Shown here: positions 5,667-23,117 of the stretch, one piece after another
Layout of the letters: each line of letters starts with the position of its first letter
How positions within the stretch are numbered: the stretch's first letter is position 1
Notes under the pieces: generated by a model
What the model was told of the DNA's origin: nothing
Databases searched by the model: none
What the model saw: the letters and a program-made list of their open reading frames with translations, nothing else
DNA from: Candidatus Poribacteria bacterium
Lineage (GTDB): Bacteria > Poribacteria > WGA-4E > PCPOR2b
DNA length: 64,000 bases
Reading direction: 5' to 3'
Assembly (NCBI GenBank): GCA_965208675.1
Contig: OZ242351.1
Coordinates: 2,560,001-2,624,000 of the forward strand
Program-made: the position numbers and the translations under genes

Positions 5667-6477
5667 ACAGAAGCGGCAGCTTGTTGAACCGGAGTGCCGT
5701 TCAGTGTCGATTGCAAGACAGTGTGAGCTCTTAGGCTTGTCTCGAGCATCGTTCTATTACACTCCTGTAGGGGAGTCACCACAAAATCTGCTGTACATGC
5801 GTCTGTTAGATGAACAGTACACCAAGAGGCCGTGGTGTGGGGTGCCTAAGTTAACGAAATGGCTTCGTCGTCAAGGATATGTTGTCAATCCGAAACGGGT
5901 AGCACGGTTAATGCGGAAGATGGGATTAGTTGCCATCTATCCCAAGATCTCCAGAATGGGCAAACCGTCGAAAGTGTACCCCTATCTGTTGAAAGGATTA
6001 AGCATCACCAGACCGAACCACGTCTGGGCAACTGACATCACCTATATTCGTTTAAGCCATGGCTTCGTTTATCTGGTAGCCATTATGGATTGGTTTTCCC
6101 GTTATGTGTTGTCATGGGAACTGTCAAACTCCCTCGACGTGTTCTTTTGCCTATCGGCTCTGGAACGGGCGCTTGGTAAAGCGAGTCCATTAATATTCAA
6201 CAACGACCAAGGAAGTCAATTTACTTCGGAGGCGTTTACTGCTAGACTTGAAGCCTCTGGCATAGCCATTAGTTGGAACGGTAGAGGCCGCTACTTTGAC
6301 AACATCTTCGTTGAACGACTTTGGCGCAGTGTTAAGTATGAGGAGGTTTACCTCAACGACTATGATTCAATGAACACGGCTCGGCGCCGCTTGAGAGATT
6401 ATTTCAACTTTTACAACCGAGAGCGACTTCATCAATCGCTCGATTACTGTACACCTTACGAGGTGTATTTTCACTAA
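5650..6477 (+). CDS. IS3 transposase OrfB (DDE integrase core), joined to OrfA via A9 tract at 5641-5649
   Basis: WATDITY, NNDQGSQF, DNIFVERLWRSVKYEE; frame is open back to the A-tract. Confidence 0.9.
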   Translation, partial: RRASVEQKRQLVEPECRSVSIARQCELLGLSRASFYYTPVGESPQNLLYMRLLDEQYTKRPWCGVPKLTKWLRRQGYVVNPKRVARLMRKMGLVAIYPKISRMGKPSKVYPYLLKGLSITRPNHVWATDITYIRLSHGFVYLVAIMDWFSRYVLSWELSNSLDVFFCLSALERALGKASPLIFNNDQGSQFTSEAFTARLEASGIAISWNGRGRYFDNIFVERLWRSVKYEEVYLNDYDSMNTARRRLRDYFNFYNRERLHQSLDYCTPYEVYFH

Positions 6478-7088: not shown

Positions 7089-7118
7089 TTGACAAAAATA
7101 TTCACGATGAATTATACT
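7089..7118 (+). promoter_or_regulatory. sigma70-like promoter of iron operon 1
   Basis: TTGACA-18 bp-TATACT. Confidence 0.65.
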
Positions 7119-7160
7119 ATCGCGATTTTCCGAATATTTCTTGGTGATGGACATATATTA

Positions 7161-7181
7161 TGCGATTGAGTCTCAGTTGCA
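7161..7181. promoter_or_regulatory. Fur-like operator 1
   Basis: TGCGATTGAGTCTCAGTTGCA near-palindrome; same motif at 7250, 13047, 20950. Confidence 0.7.
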
Positions 7182-7249
7182 ATTCAGATTTTATGGTCTC
7201 AACCAGTTTTGGACGGATTAAGTACGTCCGTTTTTATTTAAGAACGTAT

Positions 7250-7270
7250 TGAAATAGAGTCTCAATATCA
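7250..7270. promoter_or_regulatory. Fur-like operator 2
   Basis: TGAAATAGAGTCTCAATATCA immediately upstream of the porin RBS. Confidence 0.7.
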
Positions 7271-7289
7271 ATAACGAAATGAGGTAAAA

Positions 7290-12126: not shown

Positions 12127-12546
12127 ATGACCTTGCAAGTTCAAGAGGTTCAAAACAGCCCCAGCACCCCGCGTTTCATCATAGCAGCCAAGACGGACGA
12201 AATTAGACCGGGTAGCTGTATTGACGCAAAGCTAGAAGGGCATTGCATTGGTATCCACAATGTCGATGGACAGTATTACGCGGTCGACAATATTTGTCCC
12301 CATGTTGGCGGAGTTTTACACTCAGGTCAGTTAATGGACGGGGTTATCGTCTGTCCAATTCATCAATGGAAGTTTGATGTCAAGACGGGCGCGTGCATCT
12401 GGCCGGGGAAATGCGAGATTGCGACCTATCCCGTGAAGGTTGACGGCGACCACATTTTTGTTGATATCAATTCACCGAGCCGCCCAATCCAACATAACCC
12501 CATTCGAGTTTATCATACGAAGGCAAAACGGAGGGCAAAGCCGTGA
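12127..12546 (+). CDS. Rieske [2Fe-2S] ferredoxin (NirD-like)
   Basis: CPH...CPIHQWKFDVKTG. Confidence 0.85.
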   Translation: MTLQVQEVQNSPSTPRFIIAAKTDEIRPGSCIDAKLEGHCIGIHNVDGQYYAVDNICPHVGGVLHSGQLMDGVIVCPIHQWKFDVKTGACIWPGKCEIATYPVKVDGDHIFVDINSPSRPIQHNPIRVYHTKAKRRAKP

Positions 12547-12899
12547 TAACTGTCGCGAATCGAATTTACGTTGCGCCTGAATTTAGAGAAGACTTCGAGG
12601 CGCGTTTCCGAAATCGCGCACGCCTTGTCGACGGCATGCCCGGGTTCATATCAAATCAGGTGTTGCGGCCGGTAAATGACGATGACCCTTACGTGGTTTT
12701 TACACTTTGGGCATCACGCAAAGACTTTGAAAACTGGGTGGAATCGGATGAATTCCGGAAGGGGCATGCCCAATCCGGAACATTGCCCAAAGAGGCGTTC
12801 ACGCAATCGAACAAGTTAGAACTTCACGAGGTATTTCTCGATTCTTCTCGTCCGGACCTTGTGGAAGAGCCGCACGGCGGCGCATTCAGCGTACATTAG
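12543..12899 (+). CDS. ABM-domain heme-degrading monooxygenase (IsdG/HmoA-like)
   Basis: VANRI...FEARF..R...GMPGF...W..S..F..H. Confidence 0.8.
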   Translation: MITVANRIYVAPEFREDFEARFRNRARLVDGMPGFISNQVLRPVNDDDPYVVFTLWASRKDFENWVESDEFRKGHAQSGTLPKEAFTQSNKLELHEVFLDSSRPDLVEEPHGGAFSVH

Positions 12900-13046
12900 A
12901 ATGTGTAAAAACAACCGACATTCAGATTTCAGATAAAGGCTCACGAAGATGTACGACGAATTGTTTTCACACGAATCTATCAGTAAAACATATGAGCACA
13001 TTTGTACCGACACGGCGAGTGTGGCTCAATTCGTAAAATTACTTAT

Positions 13047-13067
13047 TGATACTGAGATTCGTTTTCA
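13047..13067. promoter_or_regulatory. Fur-like operator 3, overlapping a possible + strand promoter (TTGATA-17-TAAATG, 13046-13074)
   Basis: TGATACTGAGATTCGTTTTCA. Confidence 0.7.
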
Positions 13068-13082
13068 ATAAATGTGAAAAAA

Positions 13083-13242
13083 ACAGAAAGGGCCAACAAC
13101 AGGGAAAGGGACAGCACGCAACGGTCAATTGTTAGCTAGCTCCCGTATCCCCGTTGATTAGATGAATTGGGGCTTTTTTGCGCCCAATCGGGGCGAACGT
13201 TAGCAAATCAACAATTTCCCAAACGCGCCCCGCCCTTTCTGT
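13083..13242 (-). ncRNA. Candidate structured ncRNA, copy A (~160 nt)
   Basis: Terminal stem ACAGAAAGGGC/GCCCTTTCTGT; covarying inner stem; 22-nt block identical to copy B; G-U pairs favour the minus strand; U-tract at the 3' end. Confidence 0.7.
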
Positions 13243-13249
13243 ACAAATA

Positions 13250-13279
13250 AGAGTAAGCCAATCGCTTAACAAATGTCAA
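13250..13279 (-). promoter_or_regulatory. Minus-strand sigma70-like promoter for ncRNA copy A
   Basis: TTGACA-18-TACTCT, 7 nt before the stem start; same arrangement in copy B. Confidence 0.65.
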
Positions 13280-13343
13280 GAAAATAGTACGTCGTCGGTC
13301 AATGACGACGACATTAATAACCATTATCAGGTTGAGGATTTAT

Positions 13344-13598
13344 ATGATGAAACTAACCCCTATCCAATTTAGCATCTTGTTGTTGGTAATGGTGGCTGCA
13401 ACCGGTCTGGTGTTGTCTGGTTGTGAGAGCGACCCTTTGCTTGAACCGCAGTCTCAAGTCCCTGAAGAGACCGGCAGCTACGGCAATACGAATCTCCCGG
13501 TCAGTGGAACCGACAACTCGAACAATGCGGTCAACGCCGGTCAGAATAAAGATATTGACGGCAACCGCTACAGGAAAACCAATCCAGAACTCTTTTGA
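13344..13598 (+). CDS. Small lipoprotein, unknown function
   Basis: GAGGA RBS, hydrophobic leader, lipobox LSGC. Confidence 0.7.
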   Translation: MMKLTPIQFSILLLVMVAATGLVLSGCESDPLLEPQSQVPEETGSYGNTNLPVSGTDNSNNAVNAGQNKDIDGNRYRKTNPELF

Positions 13599-13617
13599 AA
13601 GTGTAGGGAACACATCT

Positions 13618-16089
13618 ATGCATCAGATTTTAGGAATTTTAATGACATTAATTCTTCTACTAGGCACGCCGAATCTTTGCTTTAGCTCAGTCGAGATTCG
13701 CGGTAAAGTTGTTGACAAAGAGACGGCACAACCGATTATGGGCGCCGCGGTTAGAATTGAATCCAATGGACAGGACTCGCGAGAGACAAAAACGGTACGA
13801 GATGGCACTTTCCATTTTGCTCAGGTTGACTTGGGGCAGATACTGATTAAGGTAAGTCTGATCGGTTATGATGATTATGTTGAGATGCTTGAGATAGATT
13901 CCGATACCACGCAAGCGTTAGACATAGCCTTGTTGAGCCGTCTCTTTGAATTTGCGCCCGTAGAGATCATTGGCAAATCACCGCAGATTAACAGAAAACT
14001 CACCGGCACTATTAGCGTATTGGAACCGCAATCGGTCGAGTTGATTCGCCCGGTTGGGACACAGGAATTGCTCGAACTCATGCCCGGCATAAACGGCTAC
14101 GCGGACGACGGATTCGGAAATTCGCGTTTGAGCATTGGCATCCGCGGTTTGAATCCGCGCCGGAGTGCGCGAGTCCTTATCCTAGAAGATGGTGTACCGA
14201 TTCAACCCGCGGTCTACATCTATCCGAATGCCTACTACAATCCGCCATCAGATAGAATCGATGCGGTGGAGGTCATTAAAGGGAGTGCCGCACTTCGTTT
14301 TGGTCCCCAAACAATGGGTGGGGTCATTAACTATACTACTCATAAACCGGTGGGGACCCGCCGCTTGGCAAATCAGTTGACTGTCGGAAATAACGGATTT
14401 TACAGCGCCTTCTCGGAGTGGCGGGGCCTCGGCAGCAAAAATATCGCTTCCGACGTACAACTGCTTTATAAACACGGCGACGGATTTCGGGAAAACAATT
14501 CGTTTGACCAAGCGAACGGCACCGTAAAGACGCTGTTCCAATTGAGTGAGCAAAAGACGCTCTATCTCAAAGCTAACGGCAATTTTGAAGACTCGAGCGC
14601 GACCTACACTGGATTGACGGAATACTCCTTCCGAACTGACCCAAACTTCAATCCGAAGGAGGACGATAATTTTAAGGTCATTCGTACATCGCTTGATCTA
14701 ATTTACACGAACAGGATTTCAAATAATCTCATAAGCAACACCACCGTATACACAAGCGTGTTTGACCGCCGATGGTGGCGCGAGGATGATATCTACGTTC
14801 GTCCTTCGGCAATTGAAACGGGGAATTTAGCGCCGGTCCCCTATTTTCAAACCGGGGACTTAGTGAGAATAGGCGGCGGAAAAGGGAATTTTGGAATCTT
14901 GAGGACGTTTTACGTCGGCGGCATAGAACAAAATTATTCCTTCAAACACCGCCTTGCCGGGACACACAGCAACGCTGACATTGGCGCACGAGTTCACTGG
15001 GAACGCTTTATCGACGATAAAAAGATTGGTGATGCTCCAGATGCACGCGACGGTGTCTACTACACTGGCACGCCGGTGGACGCCGAAGACCCCGTGAAAA
15101 TTGTGGGTCAAAGCCACCACTACGAAACCGCTGCCCTCGCACTCTATGCTAAAGAACAACTTGAGTGGGACGAGTTCACGCTGACTCCGGGACTCCGCTT
15201 TGAGGTGTTTAAGCAGGACCGAGTTGACCGGCTATACGGTTCTGTGCTAGCCGACAAGGTTTCTTCTGTTGTGTTGCCCGGCATAGGAGCAAACTATCAG
15301 CTCGGTAGATTCAATCTGTTCGGAGGGGTTCACAGAGGATATACAGCGCCATCCAGCGGAGCGTTAAAAATTACCAATTTCGGACAAAACGTCGACGCCG
15401 GCGGGCTCGACCTCAAGGCCGAAAAGAGTTGGAACATGGAAGCCGGTTTCAGGTCTTGGGGGCAGCGTTTGACCGTAGAAGTCACCGGATTCCTAATTAG
15501 CATCTCGGACATAGTCGCGGCAGGACGTGGTACAGCCTTTAAGAATTTAGGTAGAGTTGACAATTACGGATTGGAAACCGCGGTTGCAATCGGCGTTTCA
15601 CGATTCGCACCGTTGCTTCCCGACGTTAATCTTGCTTACACCTATCTCCAAACTGAAATCAAGAGCGGTATCGTCAAGTCCGCCACTATTGCCGGGAACG
15701 TAGATGTAGACCTCGTTGGAAACGAATTGCCCTACGCGCCGCGGCACACCTTGACTGTCGGATTGGCAAAACAGCTTGGTGATGCCCTGCGCTTGAGAGC
15801 AGACATGCGATTTGTCGACAAGGTCTTCACAGACTTTGAGAATATCGAACAGACGTTTAATCGCGGTGATACTGGCCCCATTCCGAGCTACACAATCGTC
15901 AATGCAAGTGCGGATTATAAAATTTCGAGCCAATGGAAGGCTTTTGTTGCGGGCAAAAACCTCTTTGACAAAGTCTACATCGGGTCGAGATTGCACTCGA
16001 ACGCCGGTCAACCAGAAGCAAACCTAAGCTCAGGTATTCTTGTTGGACCCAGGCGGCAGATACTTTTTGGTATCAAGCATGGGTTTTAG
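13618..16089 (+). CDS. TonB-dependent receptor, FecA-like, with N-terminal carboxypeptidase-regulatory-like domain
   Basis: IGIRGLNPRRSARVLILEDGVP, IDAVEVIKG...GGVINY, C-terminal F. Confidence 0.92.
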   Translation: MHQILGILMTLILLLGTPNLCFSSVEIRGKVVDKETAQPIMGAAVRIESNGQDSRETKTVRDGTFHFAQVDLGQILIKVSLIGYDDYVEMLEIDSDTTQALDIALLSRLFEFAPVEIIGKSPQINRKLTGTISVLEPQSVELIRPVGTQELLELMPGINGYADDGFGNSRLSIGIRGLNPRRSARVLILEDGVPIQPAVYIYPNAYYNPPSDRIDAVEVIKGSAALRFGPQTMGGVINYTTHKPVGTRRLANQLTVGNNGFYSAFSEWRGLGSKNIASDVQLLYKHGDGFRENNSFDQANGTVKTLFQLSEQKTLYLKANGNFEDSSATYTGLTEYSFRTDPNFNPKEDDNFKVIRTSLDLIYTNRISNNLISNTTVYTSVFDRRWWREDDIYVRPSAIETGNLAPVPYFQTGDLVRIGGGKGNFGILRTFYVGGIEQNYSFKHRLAGTHSNADIGARVHWERFIDDKKIGDAPDARDGVYYTGTPVDAEDPVKIVGQSHHYETAALALYAKEQLEWDEFTLTPGLRFEVFKQDRVDRLYGSVLADKVSSVVLPGIGANYQLGRFNLFGGVHRGYTAPSSGALKITNFGQNVDAGGLDLKAEKSWNMEAGFRSWGQRLTVEVTGFLISISDIVAAGRGTAFKNLGRVDNYGLETAVAIGVSRFAPLLPDVNLAYTYLQTEIKSGIVKSATIAGNVDVDLVGNELPYAPRHTLTVGLAKQLGDALRLRADMRFVDKVFTDFENIEQTFNRGDTGPIPSYTIVNASADYKISSQWKAFVAGKNLFDKVYIGSRLHSNAGQPEANLSSGILVGPRRQILFGIKHGF

Positions 16090-16157
16090 TCAAAACCTTT
16101 CAAACGAGAGGTTTAATCGGTTAAATTTTTAACCATTCAATTTGAAGAGGAGAACAA

Positions 16158-17483
16158 ATGAAAGTGTTTACCGAGCGGATTCTCTGGACAACTGTGCTAC
16201 TCTTGGCGACCAGCCTGTTTGTTGTAGGTTGCGGCGAGGATGACACGGAGGATCCTCTCACTGAAGAACCACCAGAAGGCGACGCCGCCATTCAGGTGCC
16301 GTCCGCTTACGTATTTGACAGTCGTTTCGTTGAAGGCAAAAGCAGCGTTTCCTATTCCGGACAGACGGTGCGCAATCTGCTGTTGCAAGACCTGAAAATC
16401 TTTATTGACAGTTTGGGCAAAGACGGCGCTCGAGCAGCAGCTGTTCAAGAAATGCTTAATCTTTATGATTACGACGATGGACTCAACCTTAAATCACTTA
16501 GTACCGCCGGCGCACTGCCAGTTTTGGAGAGCCATTATTCCTCGATTTCGACCGGCAAAAATCTGTCAGGGAAAATTTCGGGAGACGTCGTCATAGGCTA
16601 CGACCATACCGCGGACGAACTGGTGCGAGAGTGGTTTCAAATTATCGCGGATAACTCGGAAAACCCTGATAAACTCGGAACACCGGCGGTCTACACCGAT
16701 GACAACGGCGTTGACCTGACGCAGATGATTAACAAAGTACTTATCGGTGCGGTGCCTTACTATCAAGCCACGGGAGTTTATCTCGACAGCTTGCTAGACC
16801 GCGACAACAACGAGGCGCGTAATGGAACCGACCCCTACACCGCTATGGAACATGCGTGGGACGAAGCCTTCGGCTACTTTGGCGCTGCGCGAGACTATGC
16901 CCGCTATACCGATGAACAACTCGCCGGCAGCATCGATGATTTTACCTTTGACTCCAACGGCGACGGCAGCATCGATTTCAAGTCGGAGTATAATTTTGGA
17001 CTCTCGCGTAACGCCGGCAAGCGTGATAAAGGGGGCTCTGGCGTGAACTTCACGCAGGAGATTTTCGATGCGTTCCTCAAGGGCCGCACCCTAATCACTA
17101 ACCAAGGCACCGTGGCTGAAATCAGTCAACAGCGGCAGATCGCTGCAAACGGTATGGAGAAGGTAATCGCCGCGACAGTTGTCCATTATATTAACGATAC
17201 GCTCAGCGACATGTCCAAGCTGGGTACGGCGGATGAAAATCGCGTCAATCAAAATAAGCACTGGGCAGAAATGAAAGGGTTTACTGTAGCCCTGCAATAT
17301 AATCCGTTCAGGCTGATTAGCGACGGGCAACTCAGGGAATTGCACGGCATCATGGGTCAGGCGCCAGCCTACGACGCCCCCGGCAGCAACGGGTATGACA
17401 CGACGGTTGCGAACTACAACCGTGCGAAGACTGTGTTGCAGGAAGCGTATGGATTCTCCGGCGCCAATATGGCAAATTGGTAA
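16158..17483 (+). CDS. DUF4856-type lipoprotein
   Basis: Lipobox VVGC, SVSYSGQTVR, MEHAWDEAFGYFG, HWAEMKGF. Confidence 0.8.
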   Translation: MKVFTERILWTTVLLLATSLFVVGCGEDDTEDPLTEEPPEGDAAIQVPSAYVFDSRFVEGKSSVSYSGQTVRNLLLQDLKIFIDSLGKDGARAAAVQEMLNLYDYDDGLNLKSLSTAGALPVLESHYSSISTGKNLSGKISGDVVIGYDHTADELVREWFQIIADNSENPDKLGTPAVYTDDNGVDLTQMINKVLIGAVPYYQATGVYLDSLLDRDNNEARNGTDPYTAMEHAWDEAFGYFGAARDYARYTDEQLAGSIDDFTFDSNGDGSIDFKSEYNFGLSRNAGKRDKGGSGVNFTQEIFDAFLKGRTLITNQGTVAEISQQRQIAANGMEKVIAATVVHYINDTLSDMSKLGTADENRVNQNKHWAEMKGFTVALQYNPFRLISDGQLRELHGIMGQAPAYDAPGSNGYDTTVANYNRAKTVLQEAYGFSGANMANW

Positions 17484-17496
17484 GACTTAAACGATT

Positions 17497-18960
17497 GTGG
17501 ACGCACATAGGGAATCAGATCGTCGACATCTAGGCAGATTGGTGATACGCAAATTCTCGGATTTGCGTATCACTGAATTTAAAATGTGGTGTATTGTACT
17601 CGTCCTATGTGTGGCATCGCGGTTGCTTACAACCATATTCTACATCGAAGATTTGGATAGTCTCCGTTTTGCGTTGAGTATGGTTGACTATGATGTCGCC
17701 AAATTGCAACCCCACTTTCCGGCTTACCCCGTCTTCTGTTTTGTCGGCAAGCTGATTTATGCCGTTACGGGGCGTTATGCCTTGGCGTTTTCGCTCATCG
17801 GCGGCGTATCCATATTTTTGACGATTTTTTTCCTACTCAAGATTGCGGGAATTAGAATCACTTCGTCTGCCGGGCTAATTACCGTTTTCGTATTGTTCAT
17901 CAACCCGCTGCTGTGGTTGATGAGCAACCGCTACATGCCGGACGCGATGGGAGTTGGGCTCGTTTTTGCCGGTCTCTATTTCACAACAGTTAAAGACCAG
18001 AATCCGCGTAAAGTCGGGTTCGGGTTCTTTCTTGCGGGAGTCTTAGGTGGGGTGCGCCTCTCCTATCTGCCAATGCTCATACCCGCGCTATTCATGCGGT
18101 TGCGGACAAATTGGATGTCGTTAGGGTTTATCGCGGCGGGAACAGTTGGCGCTATCATTTGGCTAGTCCCTTTAGTTTTCCTCACCGGATGGGAAACACT
18201 GCTCCAAGCCGCTCAGACCCAAAGTCGAGGGCATCTTTTTGAATTTGGCGGCACTGTTGTTAGCCACCCCGAAATGTGGCTGCGAATAACGAAACTTCTT
18301 GAAGGCGTGAGGGCAGACGGATTCGGGCTTTATTGGGGCGGGCGGCATATAATAACCGCATGCACAACTATTACGCTGCTTGGAATTCTCGCCGCAAATT
18401 GGCGCCAGATAAAAAATGTCAAGCGGTCGAGTTTTCTGAGTGCCAGTTTTATCGGATGTGTGGTTTACGTCATCTGGATTTTCTGCTTTCAAAACGTCGT
18501 GAATAAGAGCCGGCATGTTCTGCCGTTAATCCCTTTTTTGGGACTTTTCATCGCGTTTGCCTGTGCTAGAATCGCCGGGCATCGGAACCGTATACTCAAA
18601 GTGGTTTTAGCCGGTTTCTTGCTCTGTTACGGATACGTTACGCTTCATCTGGTTGTGCAGCACAAAAATCCGACGGCGATTGCGCAGATATACCAGTATC
18701 TCAAGGCTAAACAGAGCGATAAACTATGTGTGGTCTCGGTGCCCCTAATAAAATATTACCTTGAATCTCAAGGGCTGAAAGCGGTCTATATCCCGATTAA
18801 AGATGAGGCTGACACCGTGAAACTTGACGAGCAGTTGAGCTCAGAATTCGTAGTCATCGGCAGCCCGCTGCATGGCCGGGCAATGAAAACTCGAAAGACG
18901 TTCTATCACAATCCGTATGTTAATCGGATGTGGTCTGAAATCCCCTTGTTTGAGTATTAA
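17497..18960 (+). CDS. Polytopic membrane protein, GT-C/PMT_2-like glycosyltransferase (start uncertain, possibly 17584)
   Basis: DxDSLRFAL...YD...QPHFPAYP loop followed by many TM helices. Confidence 0.65.
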   Translation: MDAHRESDRRHLGRLVIRKFSDLRITEFKMWCIVLVLCVASRLLTTIFYIEDLDSLRFALSMVDYDVAKLQPHFPAYPVFCFVGKLIYAVTGRYALAFSLIGGVSIFLTIFFLLKIAGIRITSSAGLITVFVLFINPLLWLMSNRYMPDAMGVGLVFAGLYFTTVKDQNPRKVGFGFFLAGVLGGVRLSYLPMLIPALFMRLRTNWMSLGFIAAGTVGAIIWLVPLVFLTGWETLLQAAQTQSRGHLFEFGGTVVSHPEMWLRITKLLEGVRADGFGLYWGGRHIITACTTITLLGILAANWRQIKNVKRSSFLSASFIGCVVYVIWIFCFQNVVNKSRHVLPLIPFLGLFIAFACARIAGHRNRILKVVLAGFLLCYGYVTLHLVVQHKNPTAIAQIYQYLKAKQSDKLCVVSVPLIKYYLESQGLKAVYIPIKDEADTVKLDEQLSSEFVVIGSPLHGRAMKTRKTFYHNPYVNRMWSEIPLFEY

Positions 18961-19019
18961 CGTGAGAGTAGAGAGACGTTACTCACATCCAAACTCAATA
19001 TCGCTGAGTAGACAAAAAC

Positions 19020-20360
19020 TTGCAATCAATCGAAACTGACGTTCAGATTCTTGGCGGCGGCCCTGCGGGGTTGGCGGCGGGGTATTATGCCAAACAGCGC
19101 GGCATCAATTTTGCTCTCGTTGAGGCTAGTGCACATGTCGGCGGAAATTGCCGCACACTCCGGGCAGGCGGCTTCCGATTCGATACCGGCGCCCACCGAT
19201 TCCACGATAAAGACCGCGAAGTCACGAGCGAGGTCAAAAAACTTCTGGGCGACGCGCTACTCCGCGTCGAAGCGCCAAGTGAGATTTTTTTCGAGGGGCA
19301 GTTCGTCCAGTTTCCGCTCACATTGACTAATTTGGTGAAGAAACTGGATGCCAAAACCTTGCTAAAAATCGCTTGTGATACACCGGGCGCTGGCCGAGGA
19401 ATATCCGCAGACAACTTCGGGAGGTTTGCGGTCAATCAGTACGGAAAGACATTAGCAGAACGCTTCCTGCTCAACTATTCTCAAAAACTGTGGGGAGAGC
19501 CGCCGCACAAGCTATCTACAGCCGTCTCCGGCAGCAGATTAAACGGATTGGACATCAAAAATTTTATCCGTTCCACCGTCATGGGCGATGTTCAACAGCC
19601 GAGCCATCTGGACGGTTCTTTCCTTTATCCAAGGTACGGCATCGGGATGATTGCAGAAAAAATGCGGGATTTTATTGGAGACCGATGCATCAGAACCAAC
19701 AGCCGAGTGAGCCGCTTAGTTCACAAGAACGGCAAAATCGAACAAATCATATTAAATGGCGGCGATGACGAGTTGCGAGCCACGAAGCTTGTCAACACAT
19801 TGCCATTGACGCTTACAACGAAAATTCTAGACCCGCCGCCGCCGCCGGAGCTTCTAGATGTCGCGAATTCAATCAAATTCAGAAATCTGGTGCTCTGCGT
19901 ATTTTGCTTGAACCGCAACTCCTTTTCGCCTAACGCCTCGCTCTATTTCCCAAGCGAATCGTTTCCTTTTACGCGGCTTTATGAACCAAAAAACCGAAGC
20001 CTTCACATGGCCCCGCAAGGTCAGACGGCAATAGTGCTTGAACTGCCGTGTTACAACCGTGATGCGTTGTGGCGTATGTCGGACAAAGCACGAAAAGCCC
20101 TGGTTTGGAAGGCTTTACAGCATGTTAAACCGATTGCAACTGAAGAAATTCTCTGTTATCGCTCTTATAAGTTGCCTTTTGCTTATCCGGTACTTGAGGT
20201 TGGGTTTGACGAAAACATAAGGCGCTTGATCGATTACCTTGAGGCATTTGAGAATCTATATCTGACAGGCAGAAGCGCGCTCTTTCGCTATCTGCATCTC
20301 CACGACCTGTTTAAAGCGGGGAAAGCGTTGGCAAATCGAATCGTAACGGTGTCCGATTAG
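19020..20360 (+). CDS. FAD-dependent oxidoreductase (UDP-galactopyranose mutase/protoporphyrinogen oxidase-like)
   Basis: GGGPAGL, GGNCRT, FDTGAHRFH, FLYPRYG, AYPV, GR..LFRY. Confidence 0.8.
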   Translation: MQSIETDVQILGGGPAGLAAGYYAKQRGINFALVEASAHVGGNCRTLRAGGFRFDTGAHRFHDKDREVTSEVKKLLGDALLRVEAPSEIFFEGQFVQFPLTLTNLVKKLDAKTLLKIACDTPGAGRGISADNFGRFAVNQYGKTLAERFLLNYSQKLWGEPPHKLSTAVSGSRLNGLDIKNFIRSTVMGDVQQPSHLDGSFLYPRYGIGMIAEKMRDFIGDRCIRTNSRVSRLVHKNGKIEQIILNGGDDELRATKLVNTLPLTLTTKILDPPPPPELLDVANSIKFRNLVLCVFCLNRNSFSPNASLYFPSESFPFTRLYEPKNRSLHMAPQGQTAIVLELPCYNRDALWRMSDKARKALVWKALQHVKPIATEEILCYRSYKLPFAYPVLEVGFDENIRRLIDYLEAFENLYLTGRSALFRYLHLHDLFKAGKALANRIVTVSD

Positions 20361-20431
20361 GGAACCGCGATGATCACTTAAAGATTGTATTATACATACT
20401 AGGAGGAATGTAGTTATTTCATTTCACAATC

Positions 20432-20800
20432 ATGAGTTATAGTGCAGATTTAAGGAAACGAGTTGTCAGTTATGTTAAAGCTGGCGGCAGCAAAATCGAA
20501 GCCGCTCGCCGATTCGATATCAGTCGAAGGACGGTGTACAATTGGTTAGCGTCAGTCAACCTGCCGCCTAAACCGCGGGCGCCGCACGCCCGTAAATTTG
20601 ACATTGGCGCTTTACGGCGTCACGTAAAGGATTATCCTGATGCCATACTCTCAGAACGCGCTCAACAGTTCGGCGTATCCATAAGTACGATATGGTATCA
20701 TTTGAATCAGATGAATTTATGCAGGCGAAACCATCAGCATATCAATAAAAACATCACTGCAACCGAGACAAGTCTTGCCGTGAATACCGTAACCGATTAG
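20432..20800 (+). pseudogene. IS630-family transposase N-terminal HTH fragment (no DDE part)
   Basis: MSYSADLRKRVV...EAARRF.ISRRTVYNW...PDAILSERA. Confidence 0.75.
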
Positions 20801-20949
20801 ATTTAAAGCCAGGGGAGATGCCATCCATGTTCGTGCGTGGAAATTTGACTCAACTACTTAACGAAGTGCGGCACGACGCCATCATAAGACAACGAGGCAT
20901 CGCATTGGGAGAAACTGACGCCGCCGCATGGTACATTTTTAAAAATGGC

Positions 20950-20970
20950 TGATACTGAGACTCATTTGCA
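20950..20970. promoter_or_regulatory. Fur-like operator 4
   Basis: TGATACTGAGACTCATTTGCA. Confidence 0.7.
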
Positions 20971-20987
20971 TAAATCAGACCTAATAT

Positions 20988-21107
20988 AACAGAAAAGGCG
21001 AACGATAGATATAGGGAAGAACTCGCAACGTCCAATTGTTAGCCGCATTCCCTATCCCTATCGGATTCATAAATTGGGGCTTTTTTGCGCCCACCGCCCT
21101 TTCTGTT
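20988..21107 (-). ncRNA. Candidate structured ncRNA, copy B (~120 nt)
   Basis: Terminal stem AACAGAAAAGGCG/CGCCCTTTCTGTT; inner stem CGATAGATATAGGGAA/TTCCCTATCCCTATCG; conserved loops shared with copy A. Confidence 0.7.
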
Positions 21108-21113
21108 CCCATT

Positions 21114-21143
21114 AGGATAAGCCAGTCGCTTTGAGATTGTCAA
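21114..21143 (-). promoter_or_regulatory. Minus-strand sigma70-like promoter for ncRNA copy B
   Basis: TTGACA-18-TATCCT, 6-7 nt before the stem start. Confidence 0.65.
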
Positions 21144-21170
21144 GAATTTTGCCTAGGAGGAAATCTATAA

Positions 21171-23117
21171 ATGACGTTGCACACCCAAATTTTGATGGGG
21201 GTTTTCGCCATCTTCGCCATTGGGGAAATAACTTTAAAGACAGGCCCCAAATCTGCCTATGCCTTCGATTCAACTGAGTTAACCAATGACATTTTTAAGA
21301 TGGACGAGATTGTCATCACCGGTACAAAAACCGAGCGTCAATTGAAAAATACACCTATTATCACCGAGATTATCACGCGCAGCGAAATCGAAGCAACAGG
21401 TGCAGAGAACATCGGAGAGGCGTTAGAGCATCGAGTGGGTGTCGTTGTCAATCGTGACGCCCACGGCGACGGAGTTCAACTGCAAGGGCTAGATTCGGAT
21501 TACATCCTAATTCTGGTCGACGGCGAACCGCAGGTTGGGCGAATCGCCGGCAAACTGGATCTTGCGCGTATGACAGTCGAAAATGTTGAACGGATCGAGA
21601 TTGTCAAAGGCGCATCGTCTGCGCTCTTCGGCAGCGCCGCGATGGGGGGCGTAATCAACGTTATCACGCGAAAAATATCATCGCCGTTTACTGCTCAATT
21701 CACCAACAACTTCGGGAACCACAACACCATTGACAGCCGTAGCACGGTTGGGTTGAATCGCGGCAAGTTCAACGGGTTAATGACGGTTACTGCAAACCGC
21801 CGAAACCCAATCGACCTGGACAAGTCAGACCTTACGACAACGATTGACGGCTATCAAAACTGGACCCACTCGGCGCGAACTGAGTATCAACTGACCCCAA
21901 AATCAACCCTCCTGTTTTCGGGGCAATATTTTGCCCAAAATCAGGACGGTGTCAGCGAAAGAGAGGGCGCCGTTTTTGACCGGCTCGGCGACATTGACAA
22001 CTTCAGCGGCAGCGTCGGCACGGAATATCAAGTCGGATCCCGCTCAAAGTTGATGGGCAAAATTTACGGCACGCGGTACCGCGATGAATCCACGGTTATC
22101 GACCGCGGCGCATCGCTCACCGCGTCATCAAATGTCACAATTCAAGACCTAATCAAGGGCGAAGTGCAATATGACGCCGCTCTCGGTTCAAAAAATCAAC
22201 TGACCGTTGGCGCAGAACTGATATTTGAAAATCTCGAATCGAAACGCATCACGGGCGGCGAAAAGGACATCACAACCGACTCGCTGTTTTTCCAAAACGA
22301 ATTTCGACCAATGGCAAAACTGTCGATTGTCTTGGGCGGACGGTTTGACAATCACTCCGAATTTGGAACACATTTCAGTCCAAAGTTGAGCGGGATGTAT
22401 CACGTGACACCTAATCTAACGATGCGTACCTCCTTCGGTGAAGGTTTTCGCGCCCCTGACTTCAAAGACCTATATCTCGATTTCAGCAATGTGACATCCG
22501 GGTATCAGGTGCTTGGAAATCCGGACTTACAACCGGAGTCGTCGGGCAACTGGAATCTTGGAGTTGAATACCTATTCAAGTCCTCAATTCGCGGACGGGC
22601 GCACCTGTATCGAAACAACCTAAACAACCTTATTGAAGCGGAACGGATCGGGACAAGCGTGCTTGGTGGGAGTAAGTTTCAGTATTTTAATGTCAGCGAG
22701 GCATTCACTGAAGGGCTTGAAGTCGAATTCTCGACCCGCTCAATTAGGGGATGTGCCGCCTCAATCGGCTATGCATATCTCAACGGCGAGGACAAGGAGA
22801 CCGGTATGGCGCTGCTGAACCGATCAAAGCATAGCGGTAACCTCAAGCTCGTTTACATGAACCCGGACGCCGGTGTCAACCTTGACCTGCGCGGGCGTTA
22901 CGCCAGTAAGTGGGGTTTTTACGACGACGGTGACAAGGTACTTGAAGATGAGGAGTATGCGCCAAGCAACTGGATATGGAACATTCGGGCGTCGAAGCAG
23001 GTCATCAAATGGTTAAAAGCCTCGTTCGGAATCAACAACATCTTCGACTTCAAAATTCCGACCTTTTATCCCTTTTCCGGGCGGTCATTTTACGGCGGTT
23101 TGTCGCTAAATTACTGA
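21171..23117 (+). CDS. TonB-dependent receptor, probably heme (HmuR-like)
   Basis: TonB box DEIVITGT, VERIEIVKG..S.LFGS.AMGGVIN, GFRAP, GNPDLQPE; adjacent to HmuY. Confidence 0.9.
   Translation: MTLHTQILMGVFAIFAIGEITLKTGPKSAYAFDSTELTNDIFKMDEIVITGTKTERQLKNTPIITEIITRSEIEATGAENIGEALEHRVGVVVNRDAHGDGVQLQGLDSDYILILVDGEPQVGRIAGKLDLARMTVENVERIEIVKGASSALFGSAAMGGVINVITRKISSPFTAQFTNNFGNHNTIDSRSTVGLNRGKFNGLMTVTANRRNPIDLDKSDLTTTIDGYQNWTHSARTEYQLTPKSTLLFSGQYFAQNQDGVSEREGAVFDRLGDIDNFSGSVGTEYQVGSRSKLMGKIYGTRYRDESTVIDRGASLTASSNVTIQDLIKGEVQYDAALGSKNQLTVGAELIFENLESKRITGGEKDITTDSLFFQNEFRPMAKLSIVLGGRFDNHSEFGTHFSPKLSGMYHVTPNLTMRTSFGEGFRAPDFKDLYLDFSNVTSGYQVLGNPDLQPESSGNWNLGVEYLFKSSIRGRAHLYRNNLNNLIEAERIGTSVLGGSKFQYFNVSEAFTEGLEVEFSTRSIRGCAASIGYAYLNGEDKETGMALLNRSKHSGNLKLVYMNPDAGVNLDLRGRYASKWGFYDDGDKVLEDEEYAPSNWIWNIRASKQVIKWLKASFGINNIFDFKIPTFYPFSGRSFYGGLSLNY

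Follow-up and report, generated by a model that had tools for sequence, protein, structure and literature searches.

Two TonB-receptor operons in the genome of a sponge-associated Candidatus Poribacteria MAG are preceded by a Fur-type palindrome, a structured stretch and a sigma70-type promoter that faces away from the operon, and we were interested whether the structured stretch belongs to the operon leader or represents an RNA of its own that is read from the opposite strand. Poribacteria are sponge symbionts and uncultivated. The window, i.e. the whole stretch of 64,000 nucleotides that was analysed, is an iron/haem-uptake island. The original prediction had placed two cassettes with a common order of parts at 13.0-13.3 kb and 20.95-21.17 kb, and this was borne out: cassette A (13046-13346) and cassette B (20949-21173) are homologous paralogues with a mean column identity of 75% in a pairwise alignment, and in both the Fur-type palindrome is followed, after 13-16 nt, by the structured element, the opposing sigma70-type promoter, the RBS and the TonB-receptor operon. 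The features of both cassettes, together with a third box of the island, are the following:

7249-7271, palindromic: third Fur-type box of the iron island, without sRNA
13046-13068, palindromic: Fur-type palindrome of copy A, TTGATACTGAGATTCGTTTTCAA, 23 bp, best PWM match genome-wide
TTGATA (13046-51), 17 nt, TAAATG (13069-74), + strand: candidate promoter of copy A, overlapping Fur-type box A
13082-13243, - strand: structured element of copy A, 13 nt from the Fur-type box
13072-13243, - strand: predicted sRNA gene of copy A (class I), covariance match to model R1 of 119.4 bits
13279-13250, - strand: predicted sRNA promoter of copy A, -35 TTGACA (13279-13274), 18 nt spacer, -10 TACTCT (13255-13250)
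13344-13598, + strand: first gene of operon A, ATG at 13344, 84-aa protein with signal peptide and LSGC motif
ending at 16089, + strand: TonB-dependent receptor ORF of operon A
20949-20971, palindromic: Fur-type palindrome of copy B, second-best PWM match genome-wide
CTGATA, 16 nt, TAAATC, + strand: candidate promoter of copy B, overlapping Fur-type box B
20988-21107, - strand: structured element of copy B, 16 nt from the Fur-type box
20978-21107, - strand: predicted sRNA gene of copy B (class I), covariance match to model R1 of 119.5 bits
21143-21114, - strand: predicted sRNA promoter of copy B, TTGACA, 18 nt, TATCCT, 10/12 matches in a generic scan
21171-23117, + strand: TonB-dependent receptor, first gene of operon B, ATG at 21171

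The LSGC motif of the 84-aa protein presumably represents a lipobox. Its gene is followed in operon A by those for the TonB-dependent receptor, a DUF4856 protein, an unknown gene and an amine oxidase, and operon B encodes the TonB-dependent receptor, HmuY, an unknown gene, a further HmuY and a periplasmic binding protein. NUDIX, di-haem oxidoreductase (DHOR), Rieske and ABM monooxygenase genes are also found in the island, and the third box lies ~17 nt ahead of the RBS and TTG of a 415-aa gene that belongs to no known family, with an imelysin gene next. A 122-aa IS630-type transposase HTH fragment (20432-20800) separates operon A from cassette B and an rve-type integrase ORF is located at 5704-6477, so that the island is flanked and interrupted by remnants of mobile elements.

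A BLAST search detected the whole cassette, from box to sRNA -35, in 26 of 61 related genomes with 68-83% identity, and of 151 genomes from the phylum Poribacteria, 72 contained a match to the class I covariance model R1; these numbers place the arrangement far beyond chance, with the reservation that related genomes are not independent samples in any of the copy counts given here. Matches to R1 were confined to four families of one order (f1, 20/25 genomes; f3, 7/10; f2, 43/100; f4, 1/4), and the 11 genomes from the other five families of the phylum gave none. One to three copies occur per genome, the genome of the window having the two cassettes alone. A pattern scan with the most conserved stretch, performed on one genome per prokaryotic species, led to 65 loci, 46 of them in Candidatus Poribacteria MAGs. 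The 19 loci outside Poribacteria are missing the rest of the element and were taken as chance matches, of which ~70 are expected by our own arithmetic.

The copies can be assigned to three classes and one variant. Class I (26 unique sequences) is the form present in the window, and in other genera it is found in the synteny Rieske-ABM-box-RNA-PepSY_TM/TBDR, as at copy A. Class II (20 unique sequences, ~172 nt, mostly from family f2) has no adjacent box and is located in the intercistronic region between ABM and PepSY/TBDR of putatively Fur-controlled iron operons: its RNA 3' end abuts the ABM stop codon and its sRNA promoter abuts the RBS of the PepSY_TM gene, with a TonB receptor gene next. 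A divergent class II copy (L088) is absent from the counts on 46 sequences and included in an alignment of 58 sequences. Class III (~147 nt) was found in genus g5 (L141-L144, at ~2001-2148 of each locus) after a WD40-repeat gene and before small genes with a 'Planctomycete cytochrome C' domain; promoter and apex are as in the other classes, and a separate hairpin-plus-U terminator of its own is present. The variant from family f4 (L147, 2001-2172) is located between a TonB receptor gene and a row of ABC-ATPase, Fur and ABM genes, and thus adjoins fur. Apart from class III, the context is iron/haem uptake (TBDR, HmuY, PepSY_TM, ABM, DHOR, imelysin, and in one variant Fur itself). Rfam 15 gave no match at gathering thresholds for the whole window or for four class II loci, and with permissive thresholds an unrelated plastid family came out best, at 22.7 bits where its threshold is 45; Rfam 15 does not include the RNA family described here. 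A tRNA/tmRNA scan detected nothing. Among public sequencing runs, five of DNA or unknown type from two studies contained the stretch 12500-22000, and no RNA run was listed for it. A literature search led to no reports on Poribacteria regulatory RNAs, their iron control or this RNA family, which is not proof of absence.

The strand of the RNA can be deduced from its wobble pairs, as an A·C cell on one strand corresponds to G·U on the other. For the minus-strand structure, 90 G·U versus 9 A·C cells were counted in class I and 97 versus 6 in class II (~82 versus 10 and 97 versus 6 with the tool alignments). An example is pair 9-158 of the closing stem P1, observed as GU in 12, AU in 12 and GC in two sequences, for which the plus strand would give twelve A·C mismatches. 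RNAalifold led to -41.8 kcal/mol on the minus versus -17.5 on the plus strand for the 26 class I sequences and to -42.9 versus -34.9 for the 20 class II sequences, and the single-sequence folds showed the same order, with -74.5 (z -6.1) versus -64.7 kcal/mol for copy A and -50.5 (z -4.8) versus -45.0 kcal/mol for copy B. Paired cells amounted to 97.8% and 98.4%, compared to 42-56% in controls with slid partners. When 58 sequences from all classes were aligned to R1, 21 of 36 pairs were changed on both sides (161 cells), which was reached in 0 of 500 shuffles, a count that overstates the support as the alignment was fitted to R1 and the sequences are related. The comparison therefore indicates that the structured RNA is on the minus strand.

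The predicted fold consists of the 12-bp closing stem P1, a small A-loop hairpin and a long hairpin with an invariant apex of 23 nt. The stems of the long hairpin differ wholly in sequence between the classes with pairing kept, and the sequence of P1, the apical pentaloop and an A-rich hexaloop are invariant along with the apex. A possible pseudoknot or alternative pairing of GCCCCAA with UUGGGAGC is also invariant on both sides. The apical loop contains UUGG, which would fit the YUNR U-turn, a motif of antisense recognition loops. In copy A, an additional hairpin is inserted at ~13190-13230, and P1 closes the 5' and 3' ends, followed by the U-rich tail. The sRNA of copy B is 78-84% identical to four orthologues, compared to 72-80% for the downstream coding DNA and ~61% for the upstream spacer. 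Judged from these alignments, selection acts on the sRNA's own fold.

A promoter of the type TTGACA-17/18-TAnnnT was found 6-7 nt ahead of the first paired base in 43 of the 46 unique copies (6 nt from the end of the -10 in copy A), and this conserved spacing predicts the first base of P1 as transcript start. Exceptions are L023, L040 and L041, three second copies whose contigs also have an intact copy at a distance of 9-10 kb. They have lost the sRNA -35 (GTGACA, CTCGAG and CTCGAC, respectively) and the spacer between box and P1 has collapsed to 0-2 nt, and both promoters seem to have decayed together. On the single sequence, evidence for the promoters is weak: the + strand hexamers of the original prediction are present as claimed (weaker at copy B), but a generic promoter scan called neither of them nor the minus promoter of copy A, found only the minus promoter of copy B, and gave no more calls per region than in shuffled sequence; the weight of the promoter evidence thus comes from the comparison across related genomes. 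At the 3' end, the mean number of T in the 12 nt after P1 is 7.7 for f1 class I, 7.3 for class II and 5.6 for f3. This U-rich tail is weak in f3, and a 12-bp stem that closes a multibranch loop is atypical for a textbook terminator. In every class, the start codon of the next + gene is found 21-65 nt from the sRNA -35. Taken together, the predicted RNA is a self-standing minus-strand sRNA gene of ~120-170 nt, antisense within the leader, and it very probably has its own promoter. The claim of an opposite-strand RNA gene with its own promoter between Fur-type operator/promoter and operon RBS was accordingly supported and extends, in conserved form, across one order of Poribacteria; with this location, the putatively Fur-controlled + transcript would have to traverse the sRNA gene.

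Two details of the original prediction did not hold. The word AGCCA.TCGCTT in the promoter spacers, suggested as a second protein site, was found without mismatch in only 3 of the 26 class I sequences and in none of the 20 of class II, and is not a general site; for 18 of 23 class I promoters, 5-7 of 7 positions of a partial inverted repeat CAATCGC-n3-GCGATTG are complementary, compared to only 2-4 of 7 in class II. The + strand stretch GGGGCTTTTTT, suggested to be terminator-like and to act in attenuation, has a T run that makes up the loop of a conserved hairpin (GGGGC/GCGCCC), and the generic scan for an inducible + strand terminator called none in either cassette. A GC-rich hairpin of 9 bp (13289-13314) separates the RBS of operon A from the sRNA -35, with a T-rich run after it on the minus strand, where it was called terminator-like; it is restricted to loci of the copy A type (own genus, L002 and L036). 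An 18-codon ORF in some g5 loci was considered as a + strand leader peptide and rejected, as it is not conserved in copy B or f3.

The box has the consensus TTGAtAyTGAGAyTCAttaTCAA, a palindrome over 23 bp. Fur recognizes an AT-rich palindrome with the consensus GATAATGATAATCATTATC, and the core GATACTGAGACTCATTATC matches it at 16 of 19 positions by our own count. A PWM built from the 26 class I boxes gave nine matches above 14 bits in the genome, which encodes two Fur-family proteins; the three best loci (13044, 20947 and 7246) are all in the window and all ahead of iron genes. From motif likeness and iron-gene context the box is a candidate Fur site. In class I, a homologous box was found in 26 of 26 loci at -23 to -42 from the element, and in the 23 copies whose sRNA promoter is intact the U-rich tail, and with it the RNA 3' end, stops 7-19 nt short of it. 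A second box is present at ~-460 in family f3. All 20 class II loci have a box immediately ahead of the ABM start, at ~-405, and 13 of them have a further one at around -580. An equally short distance between box and start as at the third box of the window was also observed ahead of ABM in class II loci.

The PWM scan detected no Fur-type box at the sRNA promoter in 26 class I, 20 class II and 7 other loci, in agreement with the predicted difference to RyhB: the box is at the 3' end of the sRNA, never at its promoter. Small RNAs of the RyhB, PrrF and IsaR1 type are repressed by Fur through a box at their own promoter and regulate iron-using proteins in trans. The Poribacteria RNA resembles them as a small RNA tied to the iron regulon, but differs in the position of the box and in that no Rfam model matches it. 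A strict tie between RNA and Fur box, implied in the original prediction, had to be given up, since the class II box is far upstream ahead of ABM and the same scan found none within ~2 kb of flank on each side of class III and the f4 variant. As class III is located beside cytochrome-c-like genes without such a box, the RNA is not bound to Fur control.

How could an sRNA at this position contribute to iron control? The short distance between sRNA -35 and start codon leaves little room for another + promoter, and in most loci none, so that with the Fur-type promoter beyond the sRNA 3' end as the only one, the mRNA would cross the sRNA gene. The iron-regulated + transcript would then carry a perfect complement of the sRNA, in the leader for class I or in the ABM-PepSY/TBDR intercistronic region for class II, and the sRNA could act in cis as antisense partner of this segment, with mutual interference of the face-to-face promoters. 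In the presence of iron, Fur would silence the + promoter, and sRNA from its unregulated strong promoter would mop up or abort leaky transcripts, for which duplex-dependent decay, processing, attenuation and head-on interference or collision are candidate routes. In the absence of iron, + transcription would outpace the sRNA pool and sweep across the sRNA promoter, and the outcome may be a sharpened response with a threshold. Through blocks of 11, 13 and 22 nt that are identical in copies A and B, each sRNA could in addition contact the leader of the other copy. We give this cis-antisense, convergent-promoter iron switch, similar to RnaG/icsA or IsrR/isiA, about an even chance; more generally, the sRNA probably helps to set the timing of iron transporter production.

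Several other explanations have to be weighed against the cis-antisense switch. The sRNA could act mainly in trans, with the invariant apex GCUAACAAUUGGCNGUUGGGAGC or the P1 strands as seed for other mRNAs, its placement next to iron genes reflecting ancestry or co-regulation and the convergent Fur promoter merely turning it off under iron starvation. The invariance of apex and P1 across classes whose remaining helices differ completely would fit, as would the class III copies in a non-Fur context and the one to three copies per genome; however, the 18-nt apex word matches nowhere in the genome but the two cassettes when up to one mismatch is allowed, complementarity of the sRNA to the RBS region of the adjacent gene was not above shuffles (mean z +0.14 for 24 class I and -1.1 for 18 class II loci, with no start found in 4 further loci), and the fact that the sRNA is packed closely, and in conserved fashion, against the next RBS in every class speaks for a local role, so that we regard a mainly trans-acting sRNA as unlikely. 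Since promoters can become bidirectional through symmetry, the operon mRNA might also start inside the sRNA promoter by means of a symmetric -10, giving a divergent pair with a 5' UTR of ~40-50 nt and no overlap with the sRNA. This length would be ordinary for a UTR, and the minus -10 is followed by A in all class II sequences (20 of 20) and about half of the class I sequences, which yields TAnnnT on the + strand with an offset of one. Such a + promoter would be without -35 or TG extension, copy A of the window and the copies from genus g5 do not show the symmetry, and the class I Fur box with its promoter, which are conserved 150-200 bp upstream, would have nothing else to transcribe; a start of this kind is distinctly unlikely.

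The remaining alternatives concern the fold itself. That the element is a + strand leader, i.e. a riboswitch or attenuator of the TonB-receptor operon, and the minus promoter fortuitous, might be expected from its position between regulated promoter and RBS, a classic riboswitch site, and from the plus strand also folding well (z -5.4 and -5.3). Read in this direction, the conserved wobbles turn into A·C mismatches in 90 and 97 cells (versus 9 and 6 the other way) and the class I alifold energy falls to -17.5 kcal/mol; the minus promoter with its fixed spacing to P1 in 43 of 46 copies, no matching Rfam family and no + terminator found also disfavour a + leader, which is extremely improbable. 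An RNA that binds a protein or ligand and whose fold is important in itself, with or without an antisense role, would account for selection on the sRNA's own fold and for the invariant pentaloop, hexaloop and P1 sequence, but no known aptamer or protein-binding motif was recognized, and we consider it improbable. Against the cis-antisense switch, the strong conservation of the multi-helix fold and the invariant apex exceed the needs of simple antisense pairing. As an extension, which we rate as very improbable, the antisense RNA could itself be a sensor whose fold and apical and A-rich loops bind an iron- or haem-linked small molecule or protein, and whose pairing with the leader or interference would need this second signal, resulting in a two-input switch in which Fur would act at the DNA level and a riboswitch-like antisense RNA at the transcript level.

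The cis-antisense switch has precedents in other bacteria, and 43 of the 46 unique copies show, at the level of the sequence, what characterizes a cis antisense RNA, namely an own promoter on the strand opposite the regulated gene or leader. For RnaG/icsA of Shigella flexneri, convergent strong and weak promoters that act by interference and attenuation have been described (PMC2879508), and the likeness is that of a cis antisense RNA whose strong promoter faces a weaker regulated one and which overlaps the mRNA leader. Compared to RnaG, the Poribacteria RNA has a smaller size, a 5'-3' closing stem and a location entirely ahead of the RBS, with no relation in sequence or structure; it is also conserved across an order and belongs to iron-uptake loci with a Fur-type box, and an induced terminator was not detected on the + strand. 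In Synechocystis, isiA, an iron-stress gene repressed by Fur (FurA), is also held down by the cis antisense RNA IsrR, which is abundant when iron is sufficient and for which a threshold or switch logic is described (PMC8635728); the proposed antisense layer on Fur-type control of iron genes would be similar. IsrR is located inside the isiA coding region, whereas the RNA described here occupies a 5' leader or a spacer between cistrons of transporter operons, in another phylum and without homology. RNA-alpha of Vibrio anguillarum is long (~650 nt) and opposite coding sequence. As an antisense RNA of the fat operon, it lowers the expression of receptor and transport genes under iron-rich conditions alongside Fur, and its synthesis needs Fur (PMC5524678). 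Compared to this description, the Poribacteria RNA is short and structured and has no box at its own promoter.

The regulatory kind is thus known, as cis antisense RNAs convergent with the regulated promoter include iron systems, and the RNA family is what is new. Unusual are the closure by a 5'-3' stem, the location wholly in the untranslated leader, the fold under its own selection, and the use in both leader and intercistronic position across an order. The analysis yields a covariance model for a defined and conserved RNA family, a candidate Fur motif for the phylum, and what appears to be a compact natural convergent-promoter antisense module that evolution has shifted between 5' leader and intercistronic position. 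If the cis-antisense model is true, the logic of IsrR and RnaG would extend to outer-membrane iron transporters in a distant phylum.

An additional observation was made upstream of the third box. On the + strand, TTGACA-18-TATACT at 7090-7119 is followed by ~110 nt with a half-box-like TGCGATTGAGTCTCAGTTGCAA, and a hairpin GGACG...CGTCC with a T run is located at ~7211-7240, immediately upstream of the box. The fold of the stretch 7090-7245 is ordinary (z -1.1), and it is conserved over its full length within the genus only, the box part alone being kept in more distant relatives. From this arrangement, 7090-7245 could represent a small + strand transcript or a terminator-ended leader.
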